DNA of 64,000 nucleotides, from assembly GCA_963717505.1 (NCBI GenBank), contig OY970342.1:3040001-3104000 (forward strand), given 5' to 3'. The first letter of the stretch is position 1; each line of letters begins with the position of its first letter. This document shows, in pieces, positions 58,618 through 64,000 of the stretch. The notes beneath the pieces are model-generated. The model made no database searches. It was not told where the DNA came from and was given only the letters and a program-made list of their open reading frames with translations. Both the position numbers and the translations under genes were made by a program. Source of the stretch: Candidatus Eiseniibacteriota bacterium. Lineage in GTDB: Bacteria; Eisenbacteria; RBG-16-71-46.

Positions 58618-60307
58618 GGGAATCGCCGCCGCGCTGCGCACGATCGGGGCCGGAGACCCGGTGGACGCGGGCACGATCGAGCTGGCGATTCCGCGCGATG
58701 CCACCCACGGCGACTGGACCAGCAACGTCGCCATGGCGCTGGCGCGCACCCTGAAACGGCCGCCGCGCGCGTTGGCGGAAGCGATCGCTGCGGCGTTCCC
58801 GCAGGATCCGCGCCTCGAGACGCCCACGGTGGCCGGCCCCGGGTTCCTGAACTTTCGCTATCGCTCGGAATTCCTCGCGTCGTTGCCGGGCCGGATTCGC
58901 GAGGTCGGCGAGGCGTTCGGACGCCACGACCACGCCCAGGGCGAGGCGGTGGTGGTCGAGTACGTGAGTGCCAATCCCACGGGTCCGCTCAACGTGGTCA
59001 GTGGGCGCGCGGCCGCGGTCGGCGCGGCCCTGGTCCGTCTGTTGCGCGCCACCGGGCACCGCGCCGAGGGCGAGTTCTACGTCAACGACGCCGGCAATCA
59101 GGTCGACCTGCTCGGCGCATCGGTGGCGGCGCGATTCGCCGAACGCATCGGCATGGCGCGACCGTTTCCGGAGCAGGGCTACAAGGGCGAGTACGTGGCC
59201 GAGCTGGCGGCGGCGCTGCCCGAGGCCGAAGCACGCGCCGCACTCGGGCGTGACCAGGTCGCCTGGTTCCGTCGCGAGGCGCTCGAGCGCATGCTGGCCA
59301 GCCAGCGGCGCGATCTCGCCGACTACGGCGCCGAGTTCGCCACCTGGTTTCGCGAGTCGACGGTCCACGAGCGCGGCGACGTCGCGAGCACTCTGCGCGA
59401 GCTCGAGCAGCGCGAGATGACCTACCGCGCGACCCGGCCCGAAGTCGACACCGGCGGGCGCGACGACGCCGAGGAAGCCGCGGCCACCGGCGAAGCGACC
59501 TGGCTGCGCACCAGCCGCTTCGGGGACGAAAAAGACCGAGTGATCGTCAAGAGCGACGGCCAGCCGACGTACCTATTGCCGGACATCGCGTACCACCGGG
59601 ACAAGCGGGCGCGCGGGTTTCGCCGGGCGATCGACCTTTGGGGGCCGGATCACCACGCGCACATCGCGCGCATGAAGGCCGCGCTCGCGGCCCTGGGGGT
59701 CGAGCCCGATTTTCTCGAGGTGCTCATCGTCCAGCAGGTCAACCTGCTCGCCGGCGGCCAGCCGGTGAAGATGAGCAAGCGCGCGGGTGAGTTCGTCACC
59801 CTGCGCGACCTGATGGAGGACGTCGGCGCCGATTGCGCCAAGTTCTTCTTCCTGATGCGCGGCACCAGCGCCCACCTCGACTTCGACCTCGACCTCGCCC
59901 GGCGCCAGAACGACGACAATCCTGCCTTCTACGTTCAGTACGCGCACGCGCGCATCTGCTCGGTGATCGCTTTCGGAGCGGAGCGGGGCGCGGCCCCGGG
60001 TCCGGGGGCTCAACCCGAAGCGCCGGAGGAAGTGGCACTCGTTCGACTGCTGGCGACGTTTCCCGAGGTGATCCGCGGCGCGGCGTTCACCCGGGAACCG
60101 CAACGGATCCCGGCGTTCCTGATCGAGGCCTCCGCAGCGTTCCACCGCTTCTACCATGCCTGCCGGGTGGTGACCGAGGACGCGGCGCGCACCCGGTCGC
60201 GCCTCGAACTCGCCGATGCCACGCGCATCGTGCTGCGCAATGGCCTGGCCCTGATCGGCGTGACCGCGCCCGAGCGCATGGCGCGGGCCGTGGAGCCGGT
60301 GGCGTGA
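58595..60307 (+). CDS. argS: Arginine--tRNA ligase
   Basis: HGDWTSNVAM, AGPGFLN, EYVSANPTGPL, YVNDAGNQ, KMSKRAG, YVQYAHARICS; start approximate (TTG). Confidence 0.95.
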   Translation: MIWTSLTEGIAAALRTIGAGDPVDAGTIELAIPRDATHGDWTSNVAMALARTLKRPPRALAEAIAAAFPQDPRLETPTVAGPGFLNFRYRSEFLASLPGRIREVGEAFGRHDHAQGEAVVVEYVSANPTGPLNVVSGRAAAVGAALVRLLRATGHRAEGEFYVNDAGNQVDLLGASVAARFAERIGMARPFPEQGYKGEYVAELAAALPEAEARAALGRDQVAWFRREALERMLASQRRDLADYGAEFATWFRESTVHERGDVASTLRELEQREMTYRATRPEVDTGGRDDAEEAAATGEATWLRTSRFGDEKDRVIVKSDGQPTYLLPDIAYHRDKRARGFRRAIDLWGPDHHAHIARMKAALAALGVEPDFLEVLIVQQVNLLAGGQPVKMSKRAGEFVTLRDLMEDVGADCAKFFFLMRGTSAHLDFDLDLARRQNDDNPAFYVQYAHARICSVIAFGAERGAAPGPGAQPEAPEEVALVRLLATFPEVIRGAAFTREPQRIPAFLIEASAAFHRFYHACRVVTEDAARTRSRLELADATRIVLRNGLALIGVTAPERMARAVEPVA

Positions 60308-61251
60308 GCGACCGGAGCATCCTGGTGGTCGGGTCGGTCGCACTCGACTCGATTCGCACGCCGTTCGGCGCGGTCGAGGAGGCGCTCGGCGGCTCGGCGT
60401 CGTATTTCGCGGTCTCGGCCAGCCACTTCGCGCCGGTGCGGGTCATCGCCGTGGTCGGCGAGGATTTCCCCGACGAGCATCGCACGCTGTTCGCCGAGCG
60501 CGGCATCGACACCTCGGGACTCGAAGTCGCGGCCGGCCGTACGTTTCGCTGGCGGGGGGAGTACGCCGCCGAGCTGGGGCACGCGCACACGCTCGAGACC
60601 CAGCTCAACGTGTTCTCGGAGTTCCACCCGCAGCTCGAGGACCGCCATCGGCAGACGCCGTTCGTGTTCCTCGCGAACATCGACCCGGAGCTCCAGCTCG
60701 AAGTGCTCCGCCAGACGCGCGGCGCGCGTCTGACACTCTCGGACACCATGAACTACTGGATCGCGCGGCGACCCGATCGCGTGCTCGACGTACTCCGCGA
60801 AGTCGACATCGCGCTGTTCAACGAGGAAGAGGCGCGCTCGCTGGCCGGCGAGACCCAGATCGTGCGGGCGGCCGAGCGGCTGCTCGAGCAGGGAGCCCGC
60901 GCGGTGATCATCAAGAAGGGCGAGCACGGCGCGCTCTATCAATCACGTGAAGACCGGTTCATCACGCCGGCGTTTCCGGTCGGCAGCCTGGCGGATCCGA
61001 CCGGCGCCGGGGACTCCTTCGCCGGCGGCGTGCTCGGCTGGCTGGCGCGCACCGGTCGCCGCGACACCGCGACCATCCGGCAGGCCCTGGTCTGTGGTTC
61101 GGTCATGGCTTCGATCGCGATCGAGGGGTTCAGTCCACGCCCACTGGCCGAAGTTTCCCCCAGTGAAATCCGGGAACGGGTTCGGGGCCTCCACCGACTG
61201 GTTCACTTCGAGCTGCCCGAGGATCTGCCCGGATCTGATGCGCGACCTTAG
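60304..61251 (+). CDS. PfkB-family sugar/nucleoside kinase
   Basis: GSVALD, GGSASYF, VGEDF, KKGEHG, DPTGAGDSFAGG. Confidence 0.92.
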   Translation: MSDRSILVVGSVALDSIRTPFGAVEEALGGSASYFAVSASHFAPVRVIAVVGEDFPDEHRTLFAERGIDTSGLEVAAGRTFRWRGEYAAELGHAHTLETQLNVFSEFHPQLEDRHRQTPFVFLANIDPELQLEVLRQTRGARLTLSDTMNYWIARRPDRVLDVLREVDIALFNEEEARSLAGETQIVRAAERLLEQGARAVIIKKGEHGALYQSREDRFITPAFPVGSLADPTGAGDSFAGGVLGWLARTGRRDTATIRQALVCGSVMASIAIEGFSPRPLAEVSPSEIRERVRGLHRLVHFELPEDLPGSDARP

Positions 61252-61278
61252 TGTTCCGGGCTAAAGTCATGGTAGAGT
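61244..61278 (+). promoter_or_regulatory. Inverted repeat plus extended -10 promoter
   Basis: GACCTTAG-N9-CTAAAGTC (61244-61268), then TGg-TAGAGT (61270-61278). Confidence 0.45.
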
Positions 61279-61318
61279 GTGACCTCGACGCCTCACCCCC
61301 CTGGAGGAGCCGCCTGAG

Positions 61319-62038
61319 ATGAGCAGCCCACGGGCACTCGACACCGCCCAAGTGGAAGAAGCCATTCGTCGACACGCCCGAGGTGTCGAAAGCGTGCGGG
61401 TCCAGGCCGAAGGCGAGGATCTGCGCGAGATCCATGTGATGCCGCGGCCGGGGTGGACTGCCAAGCAGATCGTGCGCGATATCAAGACCATCGTGCTCAA
61501 CAAGTTCGACAAGGCGATCGACCATCGCATCGTTTCGGTCGCCGACGCACCCGACGAGTGGCCCGGCGGTGAGGCCGAGCCGGCACCCAAACGCGGAGCG
61601 CCGCGGTCCGTCGACGCGCGTGTCCGATTCGGCAGCGTCAACGTCTATGTCACCGGCCGTCGAGCGCAGGCGCAGGTCGAAGTGCGCTGGAAGGGCGTGC
61701 CGCGCATGGGCAGCGCCTCCGGCTGGAGCAGCCGCGACGAAGCCCTCGATCTGGTGGTTCAGGCCACGCTTGCCACGATCCAGGAATTCCTGGACGATGG
61801 CATCGCCTTCGGGTTCGAGGGCGTCGAGGTGGTTCGAGTCGGACGCCGGGAGGTCGTGGTGGTCGGACTCGAGCTGTTGGCGTATCGTGCCCACAAGAGT
61901 CTGGTGGGTGCGTGCACGGTGGAAGCCGACGTGCAACAGGCGGCAGTGCTCGCCACCTTGTCGGCACTGAATCGTGTGCTGGGCGGACTGCCGACCCGCG
62001 AACCCACCGAATACGTTTTGAGGCCGACATCGTCCTGA
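61319..62038 (+). CDS. Uncharacterised 239-aa protein (N-terminal alpha/beta domain + duplicated beta-beta-beta-alpha region resembling the LeuA regulatory domain)
   Basis: GGAGGAG SD; 'EIHV...KQIVRDI...IDHRIVSVA'; repeats ending 'VVQATLATIQEFL' and 'AAVLATLSALNRVL'. Confidence 0.8.
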   Translation: MSSPRALDTAQVEEAIRRHARGVESVRVQAEGEDLREIHVMPRPGWTAKQIVRDIKTIVLNKFDKAIDHRIVSVADAPDEWPGGEAEPAPKRGAPRSVDARVRFGSVNVYVTGRRAQAQVEVRWKGVPRMGSASGWSSRDEALDLVVQATLATIQEFLDDGIAFGFEGVEVVRVGRREVVVVGLELLAYRAHKSLVGACTVEADVQQAAVLATLSALNRVLGGLPTREPTEYVLRPTSS

Positions 62039-62099
62039 GGGAGGACAGCGAAGCGAAACTGGAGCGAAGCGTACCCACCTGAGGCAGCTCAAAAAAAAA

Positions 62100-62132
62100 C
62101 ACTCCGTCGGGGCAACCCGATCAAAGGAGGTG
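62100..62132. other. Hairpin (GCAA tetraloop) that can mask the micro-ORF SD; reads as a terminator-like hairpin + T9 on the minus strand
   Basis: TCGGG-GCAA-CCCGA (62107-62120), extended by CACTCC (62100-62105) pairing with GGAG-G-TG (62126-62132); A9 tract at 62091-62099. Confidence 0.55.
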
Positions 62133-62138
62133 GGTCGC

Positions 62139-62165
62139 GTGAAGATGGGTAAGGCTGGGTGGTAG
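62139..62165 (+). CDS. Putative micropeptide MKMGKAGW (8 aa)
   Basis: AAAGGAGGTG (62123-62132); GTG 8 nt after GGAGG; GTG AAG ATG GGT AAG GCT GGG TGG TAG. Confidence 0.6.
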   Translation: MKMGKAGW

Positions 62166-62256
62166 ATTTCGCCCGCAGTACGTAGAACCTCCTGATTGTT
62201 CGGTGTCGGTCTCACCCAACGTGGCAATCCCGCAACCTGTCCCCCGGGTGACAACC

Positions 62257-63579
62257 ATGGTCGACGTCCCGCCGTTCGCCCACCCTCGGTGGTTCCGGGT
62301 CTACTTCTTCGCCGCACTGCTGACCGCACTCGCCGCCTTCGTCGCGACGCCGTCCGGTGCCCAGCCGCCACTCCTGATTCTCGGGGTCGTGGTCGGCCTG
62401 ATGCTGGCGCTCGAGCTGACGCCGATCGAGCTGCCCGGCGGCGGTTACGCGACCACCAGCGCGGTCGTCGACCTGCCGGCCATCGTGCTGATCGGACCGT
62501 TCTGGACCGCGGTGCTCGACGTGATCGCGATCGGCGTCGCCCAGGGGCTGGTGCGCCGGCGCGCGCCGATCAAGGTGATCCACAATGTCGCGGTCGCGAT
62601 CCTCACCGACCTGGCCGCCGGCTGGGCCTGGCACGCGGCCGGTGGCGCGACTTCGGGACGAGCGTTCGCCGAATGGATGGCGCCGTTGTTCGCGATGGGC
62701 TTCGCCTACTTCGCGGTCAACTCGACGCTGGCCGCGGTCGCGGTCGGCCTGACCCAGGGGCCGAACCCACTGCGGGTGTGGGAGCGGAGTTTCCTCGACG
62801 GCATCATCCACCACGTCTCGTTCCTGGCGCTCGGCATCCTGGCGACCATGACCTACCGGGTTGCGGGGGGGTGGGGACTCCTGTTCTTCGCGATTCCGTT
62901 CATGGTCGCGCGCCATTCGTTCCGGCTCTACGTGGAGATCCGCTCCGACTTGAAGGACTTCGTGCGCGCGCTCTCGGAGGTGCTCGAAGAGGTCGATCCC
63001 TACACCCGGCACCACTCGGCGCGAGTCTCCCAGTACGCCGTGCGCCTGTCCCGCGAACTGGGGCTCCCGGAACGCGAAGTCGAAGAGGTCGAATACGCGG
63101 CCCTGGTCCACGACCTGGGCAAGATCGGGCCGCAGCATCAGCACATCCTCCAGAAACCGGGCAGCCTGTCGCACGAGGAGCAGCGCACGCTGCGCTCGCA
63201 CCCGGCCGCTGGCGCCGAGATCGTGCGCAAGGTGCGGGCCCTCCGGCGGCCGGCCGAGATCATTCGCGCCCACCACGAGCGTCCGGACGGACAGGGCTAC
63301 CCGTTCGGACTGCAATCCGACGACGTTCCGATCGGCGCTCGCATCCTCAACGTTGCCGACGCGTTCGACGCGATGACCTCGGACCGGCCGTATCGCCGCG
63401 CATTGTCGGTGCGGGCGGCACTCGACGAACTCAGACGCGGCGCCGGCACCCAGTTCGACGATCAGGTGGTCGCCGCGCTGGTGCGGATGAACGAGCAGCA
63501 GCGCTTCCCGCTGTTGCCGAGTCCGAGCAGCGAGGACCTGCAGCAGCTGCGCATTCGCCCCCTGCGTCTGCGCGCGTGA
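62257..63579 (+). CDS. Membrane-bound HD-GYP cyclic-dinucleotide phosphodiesterase with multi-TM (MASE-like) sensor
   Basis: About 7 TM helices, then DPYT..HS.RV, HDLGKIG, HP..GAEI, HHER.DGQGYP, ADAFDAMTSDRPYR, GTQFD. Start could be GTG 62203. Confidence 0.92.
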   Translation: MVDVPPFAHPRWFRVYFFAALLTALAAFVATPSGAQPPLLILGVVVGLMLALELTPIELPGGGYATTSAVVDLPAIVLIGPFWTAVLDVIAIGVAQGLVRRRAPIKVIHNVAVAILTDLAAGWAWHAAGGATSGRAFAEWMAPLFAMGFAYFAVNSTLAAVAVGLTQGPNPLRVWERSFLDGIIHHVSFLALGILATMTYRVAGGWGLLFFAIPFMVARHSFRLYVEIRSDLKDFVRALSEVLEEVDPYTRHHSARVSQYAVRLSRELGLPEREVEEVEYAALVHDLGKIGPQHQHILQKPGSLSHEEQRTLRSHPAAGAEIVRKVRALRRPAEIIRAHHERPDGQGYPFGLQSDDVPIGARILNVADAFDAMTSDRPYRRALSVRAALDELRRGAGTQFDDQVVAALVRMNEQQRFPLLPSPSSEDLQQLRIRPLRLRA

Positions 63580-64000
63580 TGCGCTACCGCGACGCGGGGG
63601 TCGACCTCGACCGCGCCGACGCGATCAAGCATCGGCTGATCGAATCGGTGCGCTCGACCTGGGGTGCCAACGTGCGGCCGCTGGTCGGAGGGTTCGCCGG
63701 CGTCATGGAGTGGCCGGCGGGGCCGACGCTGATCGCGGCGACTATGGATGGGGTCGGGACCAAGCTGCACGTCGCGCTGGCCGCGGGTCGGGTCGGGGAT
63801 GCGGCCGCGGATCTCGTCTATCACGGCGCCAACGACCTGCTGGTCCACGGCGCCCGCCCGCTCGCCTTCCTCGACTACATCGCCCAGGCTCGGCTCGATC
63901 CGGAAGTGATCGCGGATGCCGTCGATGGGCTGGCGCGCGCGTGTCGCGAAGTGGGCGCGGTCCTGCTCGGGGGTGAGACGGCCGAGATGCCCGACACCTA
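63579..64000 (+). CDS. purM: Phosphoribosylformylglycinamidine cyclo-ligase, 3'-truncated
   Basis: My translation (absent from the ORF track): MRYRDAGVD...GGFAG...DGVGTK...NDLLVHGARPLAFLDY...GGETAEMP. Confidence 0.95.
   Translation, partial: MRYRDAGVDLDRADAIKHRLIESVRSTWGANVRPLVGGFAGVMEWPAGPTLIAATMDGVGTKLHVALAAGRVGDAAADLVYHGANDLLVHGARPLAFLDYIAQARLDPEVIADAVDGLARACREVGAVLLGGETAEMPDT

Follow-up and report, generated by a model that had tools for sequence, protein, structure and literature searches.

In the genome of a Candidatus Eiseniibacteriota bacterium (G000), a gene of only eight codons lies between the genes for a 239 amino acid protein, here called A, and for a membrane protein with an HD-GYP domain. 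The stretch analysed, G000:C1:3040001-3104000 (64,000 nucleotides), is referred to here as the window; positions are counted from its first letter and all of the features described are on the forward strand. The micro-gene (62139..62165) has a GTG start, eight codons, and a TAG stop, and its product is VKMGKAGW. Its conservation shows it to be a real miniature gene, and the C-terminal tail that its product shares with the products of related genes, G-[K/R]-x-G-W, accompanies the sensor domain of the membrane protein. The explanation that we favor, at slightly less than an even chance (about 0.45), is that the tail is a trans-acting partner of a sensor domain resembling MASE9. The product of the micro-gene may be the first partner, or the first regulatory device, known for this sensor.

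The micro-gene is preceded by a Shine-Dalgarno (SD) sequence, AAAGGAGGT, at 62123-62131, which includes GGAGG at 62126-62130, eight nucleotides (nt) before the open reading frame (ORF). In the segment formed by the SD and the spacer (62123..62138), the GGAGGTG columns are invariant among relatives and 62129-62138 is one strand of an RNA helix, P1, described below. The SD-led ORFs of this family range from 8 to 50 codons, and that for VKMGKAGW is the shortest; in 36 of the loci the distance from the SD to the start is 7-12 nt. The typical ending is G-[K/R]-x-G-W and the broader form is [K/R/H]-x-x-W; the feature shared across the ORFs is a basic residue three places ahead of the last Trp. Different families have their own version of this ending. 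It is GKSGW followed by one residue in f7, PGKAGW in f8, GGRAGW with or without F in f14 and f18, and GGHAWW or NWW in f12. One to five residues may follow the tail (L026, f7, f14) and in two families it is tripled, as DGK[AG]GW in L027, L030, L031, and L033 and as GGHAWW in L073. Only the last 4-5 residues are conserved. The front part is between 3 and 45 residues long and, judged by eye, is hydrophobic or amphipathic in nearly all families; this hydrophobic part is absent from the lineage of the window.

Is such a short frame simply the product of chance? By chance, such a motif would be expected about 6 times in a genome when all six frames are read, and of the six G[KR]xGW-stop frames in G000 the micro-ORF of the window is the only one with an SD. 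An SD-led ORF of 8-50 codons, ending in G-[K/R]-x-G-W or a close variant, recurs between A and the HD-GYP gene at 36 of 38 loci from six families, and because of this recurrence the micro-ORF is far beyond chance. The two exceptions are a locus cut at a contig edge and L036, which has no ORF. In a genome collection, whose loci overlap the 38-locus species set and are not independent of it, 76 of 78 loci have at least 300 nt of sequence downstream and an ORF is present in all 76. Of these, 74 pass the ORF filter and the other two, in which A is 28% identical, have a 20-codon ORF ending in TKTWW. In a second phylum-level group, that of G159, which has no genome handle in common with the 151-genome sample of the phylum of G000, an SD-led ORF ending in W is present at 11 of 30 loci. 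The first-pass annotation of this DNA had asked whether homologues of A precede transmembrane HD-GYP genes with a short ORF of this type in between, and orthologous loci show just such an ORF. It had also suggested that gene callers miss a system of this kind. Forms of at least 30 residues are on record as 'hypothetical protein' and a 24-residue form is not on record. Searches of Pfam and NCBIfam with six of the micropeptides returned no match and a protein atlas search with the 50-residue form returned no usable match. A metagenome scan gave a single locus. Some cassette-bearing records (L092, L104, L149, L150, L162, L164) are labeled Saccharimonadaceae, Limnocylindria, Verrucomicrobiia, Methylomirabilota, or Acidiferrales; all other bins with the cassette have an Eisenbacteria label, and the deviant labels may be binning or naming errors.

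The pattern of substitution in the micro-ORF is that expected of a translated sequence. In the 36 ORFs ending in W-stop, variation falls at the third position of the codons for Gly, Ala, and Gly, and exchanges between K and R alter whole codons, at two or three bases. In 14 ORFs of sixteen codons the tail has a ratio of nonsynonymous to synonymous differences (pN/pS) of 0.34, compared with 0.59 for the front part; pS is at about 0.55 and so near saturation. The stop codons of the 36 ORFs are TAA in 19, TAG in 15, and TGA in 2, compared with TGA in 530, TAG in 324, and TAA in 53 of the 907 long ORFs of G000 with high G+C at third codon positions. The closest relative found, L089, has an A protein that is 81% identical and encodes the same octapeptide with one synonymous change (GGT>GGA), in a spacer that differs by substitutions and indels on either side. 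The intact octapeptide between diverging flanks argues that the eight-codon form is being kept and is not decaying.

Which of its two neighbors does the motif track? Three sets of loci separate A from the sensor in this respect. At all five loci of family f10, pfkB stands directly before the HD-GYP gene and both A and the ORF are missing. In G038, A is beside the HD-GYP gene and the ORF is absent there; the leader and a 20-codon ORF ending in GGGAGWG are found instead on another contig, about 230 nt before the gene for a 472 amino acid kinase, with no A nearby. The domains of this kinase are Pfam MASE9 (E 7e-12, 46.1 bits), HisKA, and HATPase_c, and its membrane part aligns to the HD-GYP protein of the window (E 2e-8). 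Lastly, the comparison was extended to weaker paralogues of the membrane part, at 20 loci, about 13 of which were usable, and at two of these a lipoprotein-like ORF, without A, lies 90-120 nt upstream of a stand-alone membrane protein. These ORFs have a signal sequence, an L-[A/V]-S-C site, and the endings TGKAGW-stop and QGRAGW-stop. One of the membrane proteins that follow them is a stand-alone MASE9 of 254 amino acids (E 3e-9) and the other has no Pfam match. Taken together, these loci show that the motif follows the sensor domain and not A. The earlier proposal that the peptide concerns the membrane sensor has thereby gained support, from the tail that precedes a MASE9 histidine kinase in the absence of A and from the tails that end lipoproteins ahead of stand-alone MASE9-type proteins. 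The lipoprotein form is that of L203 and L211 (G086:C41, G065:C99), where the proteins have about 175-210 residues, share the ending G-[K/R]-A-G-W-stop with the micropeptides, and are encoded directly before the stand-alone MASE9-type membrane proteins.

The membrane HD-GYP protein (62257..63579, 440 amino acids) has a multi-pass N-terminal part, probably MASE9-like, and an HD-GYP domain. The latter matches HD_5 at E 2.5e-38 (131.9 bits, cut-off 27.2) and contains HDLGK and HHERPDGQGYP. HD-GYP domains are defined by the motifs HD and HHExxDGxGYP. Hydropathy gives about 6-7 hydrophobic windows in residues 13-218, and this transmembrane part is found in 128 of the 151 genomes of the phylum sample. 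The alignment with the MASE9 kinase by BLASTP covers residues 141-266 at the E value given above, and the orthologue of the sensor in L030 scores 23.4 bits on the MASE9 model, for which the cut-off is 24.3. From these relationships the membrane part of the sensor is probably MASE9-like. As in MASE9 proteins, a multi-pass N-terminal membrane domain is fused to HD-GYP and has relatives that carry a histidine kinase or stand alone; unlike them, the domain of the window falls short of the Pfam model, on which relatives score 23.4, 46.1, and 37.5 bits. MASE9 was described as a membrane sensor domain that is promiscuous in its outputs, HD-GYP being one of them, and the available part of that preprint suggests binding within the membrane, names no ligand, and mentions neither a peptide partner nor an upstream micro-ORF (bioRxiv 10.1101/2021.11.05.467447). 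The start of the HD-GYP gene is taken as the ATG at 62257, which places 218 nt between it and A. The longest ORF call begins at an alternative GTG (62203), which is within a conserved RNA box, and the alignment of relatives favors the ATG.

The micro-gene lies within a conserved RNA domain, about 200 nt long, that takes in the last codons of A. The 5' strand of a long-range helix, P0, is formed by the last codons of A (L-R-P-T-S, 62019..62032) and pairs with a conserved box of invariant columns, CGGTGTCGGTCTCA, at 62201..62214, which is the P0 3' strand and contains the alternative GTG. Across the loci this box is 13-80 nt past the ORF stop. A second helix, P0b, is present in the minimum free energy (MFE) structure between GGGAGG directly after the stop of A (62039..62044) and CCTCCT at 62188-62193; in the alignments GGAGG after the A stop and CCTCC ahead of the box were seen to recur, without a formal count. 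Next come two copies of AGCGAAGCG (62047-62055, 62063-71), the most conserved block of the leader, with invariant or nearly invariant columns. The 5' strand of P1 (62069..62079), an anti-SD sequence located after the second copy, is the core helix in RNAalifold and pairs with 62129-62138, a stretch made up of the 3' half of the SD together with the spacer. Between the P1 strands there is a variable hairpin region (P2) with a run of A (62080..62122), recognized by eye and in the MFE structure. The segment after the stop (62166..62200) consists of a variable hairpin region, seen by eye in many loci, and then the CCTCCT.

P0 is in homologous register at 40 of 48 loci. In these 40 loci, which were selected by the P0 register score itself, the two P0 helices are paired in 86.7% and 85.4% of cells and 10 of 15 pairs have changes on both sides; P1 is paired in 76.5% of cells with 5 of 7 pairs changed on both sides. 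The structure as a whole is 77.9% paired, versus about 40% in slid controls, and the observed values were reached by none of 500 shuffles. Compensation in P0 can be followed in single loci. In L002, L014, and L015 a Thr of A has become Ala (ACA to GCA) and the box has changed from T to C; in L003 and L004, GAC and GTC are swapped on both strands. In the window, the 206-nt stretch folds at -84.5 kcal/mol (z -3.99) and P0, with 14 pairs in the MFE structure, closes the domain. Covariation in the alignments supports both helices. The ungapped helix score discriminates poorly in G+C-rich DNA, exceeding all 30 mononucleotide shuffles in only 21 of 48 loci, and for this reason the case for P0 was built on covariation and on its register in homologous loci. 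Applied to the intergenic alignments as a whole, RNAalifold recovered the P1 core and, beyond it, only a weak pairing between the box and the end of the ORF, which was rejected (4 of 8 pairs were G-U, with no compensatory change). A long-window duplex search for P0 was likewise set aside, as it returned meaningless long duplexes. In a search of Rfam 15 with 61000-62600 the only match was mir-1994 at E 2.4.

A covariance model of the leader, which is biased towards f1, finds a single copy in G000 (next match E 0.4) and likewise a single copy in each of 54 of the 59 f1 genomes; it finds none in the 32 f10 genomes. In G000 there are just two tandem pairs of AGCGAAGCG, and the single motif AGCGRAGCG is not enriched in this genome (80 and 85 copies per strand, 81.5 expected). 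The other tandem pair (G000:C1:1680740-1680770; L168, about 1741-1771) is located between convergent genes. The inverted repeat on its flanks, GTCTCA / TGAGAC(C)GAC, is similar to the strands of P0, and an SD-led ORF was not observed at this site. In L003-L006, L008, L010, L018, and L022, A continues through the AGCGGAGCG block and has a C-terminal extension, ..E-A-S-G-A-K-R... In A genes that run through the first AGCGGAGCG block, the stop codon adjoins the P1 5' strand, and coupling of ORF translation to the translation of A is therefore plausible.

These features can be combined into a mechanism. The eight-codon gene would be translated from within an RNA domain in which P1 covers the spacer as well as the 3' half of its SD, and in which P0 joins the last codons of A to the box behind the micro-gene. 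Ribosomes finishing A would melt both P0 and P1, so that the peptide would be made only together with A. The tail would then act in trans as a partner or ligand of the adjacent MASE9-like domain and tune the cyclic di-GMP (c-di-GMP) phosphodiesterase activity of the HD-GYP protein; at other loci it would tune a histidine kinase. A trans-acting tail is favored because the motif behaves like part of a protein, being tripled in f3 and f12 and sometimes not terminal, because it is common to peptides and to the ends of lipoproteins, and because it tracks the sensor domain through three architectures. The more specific form of this proposal, in which the tail is the cognate ligand of MASE9-type domains, whether on a micropeptide or a lipoprotein end, and is gated by an RNA switch that reads the translation of A, is offered tentatively, as a possibility that is rather less probable than the general one.

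Several points weigh against a trans-acting tail. Residues 1-238 of the window protein gave nothing at E<=10 against Pfam MASE9 (PF20972). Most of the f1 peptides, at 16 amino acids, are too short to span a membrane, and since the peptides of the window and of L089 have no hydrophobic part, membrane anchoring must be dispensable here. MASE9-like HD-GYP genes exist without the ORF, at 5 of 5 loci in f10 and 19 of 30 in the second group, which indicates that the sensor does not need it; the loss of both A and the ORF in f10 may have been one deletion. The lipoprotein form is present at only 2 paralogue loci. Finally, the position of the ORF, its strong SD, the helix that sequesters the SD, and the C-terminal motif would equally suit a cis-acting leader.

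The cis-acting leader is the strongest rival. The first-pass annotation had itself listed an upstream ORF acting in cis on HD-GYP expression as its alternative, and this has stood up well, with the addition that the ORF is inside a conserved SD-sequestering RNA; a trans-acting product is still preferred. In this rival a ribosome would pause at the terminal [K/R/H]-x-x-W, with a small molecule or the supply of Trp-tRNA as a possible cue. It would remodel the RNA around it, at the post-stop hairpin, the box, and P0, and so set the expression of the sensor gene, leaving the peptide without a job. We consider it possible and rather less probable than a trans-acting tail. The ORF is in the 5' region of the sensor gene and within alternative pairings, and the restriction of conservation to the last 4-5 residues, behind a front part of 3 to 45 residues, would be expected of it, as would the stable retention of the eight-codon form. 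A variable hairpin, identified by eye, begins 1-14 nt past the ORF stop. The 16 nt after the P0 3' strand are rich in T (0.33, versus 0.20 in the body of the element), and 11 of 40 loci have 7 T or more among these 16; however, the window and L089 have no such tract. The alignments contain no conserved pairing over the HD-GYP ribosome site, a simple scan of 61150-62300 found no terminator, and the bias towards TAA indicates efficient termination, all of which speaks against a regulatory pause. In addition, the front part has remained hydrophobic and a single pause site does not explain the motif that is tripled in two families.

Comparison with arrest peptides cuts both ways. The SecM, ApdA/ApdP, and K-Y-x-I-W class peptides, as described in the available parts of two papers (PMC10987492, PMC10951233), share with the micro-ORFs a small upstream ORF, a hydrophobic front, a C-terminal motif conserved among homologues with a basic residue three before the last, and a downstream gene for a membrane protein. 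The position of the basic residue recalls the R-A-G-P, R-A-P-P, and H/Q-A-P-P motifs, and the available part of one of these papers includes the K-Y-x-I-W class and motifs that end at the stop codon (PMC10987492). Unlike those peptides, the micropeptides have a motif that lacks proline and can be tripled, and the target is a signaling sensor and not a component of Sec or YidC. The spacing of more than 30 residues between signal and motif given in the same source, as far as it is available (PMC10987492), is present in the lipoprotein form alone, most of the micro-ORFs having 8-30 codons; that form, with its signal peptide, long spacer, and conserved end, has the features published there for monitoring substrates, which favors a cis role. 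A role in trans and a role in cis could also both exist at once.

The spacer that holds the ORF may carry a different device in other lineages. A TGGCAC-N5-TTGC-like site is found in the spacer before the HD-GYP gene at all five f10 loci, and sites of the form TGGCA(C)-N5-7-T(T)GC precede the HD-GYP gene in the ORF-less L078-L081 and L084 (f10) and L182, L184, L185, L188, L192, and L193 (second group). We take these to resemble sigma-54 promoters. Since the ORF-less lineages have such a site, the same spacer would hold one of two alternative devices, and the presence of a promoter-like element at the same spot is a further point for a role of the ORF in expression. The scan of 61150-62300 found 0 promoter-like sites of the sigma-70 type, and the promoter-like element that had been ascribed to the three-part unit was not recovered. 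In L166 and L167, the spacer after A contains a common TTGACAGTTTTT block upstream of the leader, which may be a -35 element that gives the micro-ORF and the HD-GYP gene a transcript of their own in these lineages. Two soil metatranscriptome runs, which may be one data set filed twice, each have one contig on 61300-63600. It is 324 nt long, matches 61966-62289 with 0 differences, and runs from the end of A across the entire element into the HD-GYP gene, of which it includes the first 33 nt. It hints, if only weakly, that no RNA of the cassette is more abundant than the element, given that such contigs show neither RNA ends nor strand and that DNA can occur in RNA libraries. DNA runs contained short pieces of the stretch only, and no claim about habitat is drawn from them.

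A second rival makes A the partner of the peptide, with a LeuA-type domain binding the C-terminal Trp tail and the coupled pair acting on the HD-GYP protein. Protein A (61319..62038) is found in 39 of 41 related genomes, a tally that includes G026, and in 78 of 81 genomes of the second phylum-level group, and its family is large, with 2680 cluster representatives at E<=1e-3. Against Pfam and NCBIfam it gave nothing above cut-off; the score for Pfam LeuA_dimer is 14.6 bits, below the cut-off of 24.9. In the AlphaFold2 model (pLDDT 87.7), a small N-domain of alpha/beta type is joined by a disordered linker to a C-domain built from two beta-beta-beta-alpha units. The C-domain matches the LiCMS regulatory domain 3f6g_B with Z 10.4 and a root-mean-square deviation (rmsd) of 2.6 over 109 aligned residues, and LeuA 3fig (3fig_B) with a Foldseek E of 9.6e-6. 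On the basis of the model, it is predicted to have the regulatory fold of the LeuA/citramalate synthase type. The double beta-beta-beta-alpha fold is alike in both, whereas A differs in having no attached synthase and many invariant arginines. The N-domain is a common alpha-beta-beta-alpha-beta unit whose best match, the CzcD C-terminal domain (Z 8.7, rmsd 1.8, 67 aligned), is at a level within the range of common arrangements.

The resemblance of the C-domain of A to domains that bind Leu or Ile would suit this second rival. So would the absence of any ORF without A among the HD-GYP cassettes examined, and the arrangement of the RNA, in which the P0 5' strand is in the last codons of A and the A stop abuts the P1 5' strand in several genomes, implying coupling. 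However, the ORF in G038 precedes a MASE9 kinase with no A nearby while A stands beside the HD-GYP gene without an ORF, the GW-ending lipoproteins before stand-alone MASE9-type proteins have no A, and many ORF-less loci of the second group keep A. We regard A as an improbable partner.

Two further explanations are weaker still. Small hydrophobic products, together with SD sequestration (P1) and a long-range closing helix (P0), recall the hok-type and aapA-type mRNAs, in which an anti-SD helix is combined with a closing long-range helix, and would fit a peptide like a type I toxin that harms the membrane and is silenced by its own RNA; this is very unlikely, as the element occurs once per genome, in a fixed syntenic position across the phylum (in 54 of the 59 f1 genomes), and is not patchy or multi-copy, the octapeptide has no hydrophobic part, and the hydrophilic tail is what is conserved. 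Least probable of all is a precursor like those of ribosomally synthesized and post-translationally modified peptides, in which the front part would be the leader and the GW unit would be the core; although the leader-plus-core look, the cores tripled in two families, and a K...W pair reminiscent of Lys-Trp cross-linked peptides would suit it, there is no maturation enzyme among the conserved neighbors pfkB, A, HD-GYP, and purM and the octapeptide has no leader.

The remaining genes of the locus provide its context. A pfkB-family kinase gene (60304..61251; Pfam PfkB, E 8.6e-31) is upstream of A at 20 of 20 loci, and purM, encoding AIR synthase (63579..64000; Pfam AIRS, E 1.9e-18), follows the HD-GYP gene and is cut by the end of the window. 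The three-part unit of uncharacterized protein, short ORF, and membrane HD-GYP protein had been placed between these two genes, and each part was found at its claimed position. The linkage of A to the HD-GYP gene also holds elsewhere, the order pfkB, A, HD-GYP being present at all 20 family-f1 loci and the HD-GYP gene being downstream of A at 28 of 30 loci of the second phylum-level group. No published description of the locus was found in the literature searched on Eisenbacteria, HD-GYP, small ORFs, and MASE9.

Small membrane proteins that modulate sensors are known in MgrB and SafA, which act with PhoQ. By analogy, the micropeptides are very small products encoded near a membrane sensor, of a kind usually missed by gene callers, and the contact proposed for them is likewise with the sensor at the membrane. 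Unlike MgrB and SafA, most of them are too short for a membrane helix and the form in the window has none; in addition, their conserved part is the C-terminal G-[K/R]-x-G-W and the gene lies within a conserved SD-sequestering RNA.

MASE-type membrane-embedded sensor domains are essentially without known ligands. The neighborhood rule described here ties one short C-terminal motif to the MASE9-type domain in HD-GYP, histidine kinase, and stand-alone architectures. It is valid across many uncultured lineages, and the pairing of ORF and sensor is seen in two phylum-level groups. It also provides a concrete candidate of 8 to 16 residues that can be synthesized. The RNA has a compact design, in which the end of one gene pairs across a micro-gene that is gated by an anti-SD helix, and is a clean model for translational coupling or attenuation. 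The locus illustrates what gene callers miss. If the tail is indeed the cognate ligand of MASE9-type domains, c-di-GMP phosphodiesterases and histidine kinases would receive an input from a peptide that is genetically encoded.

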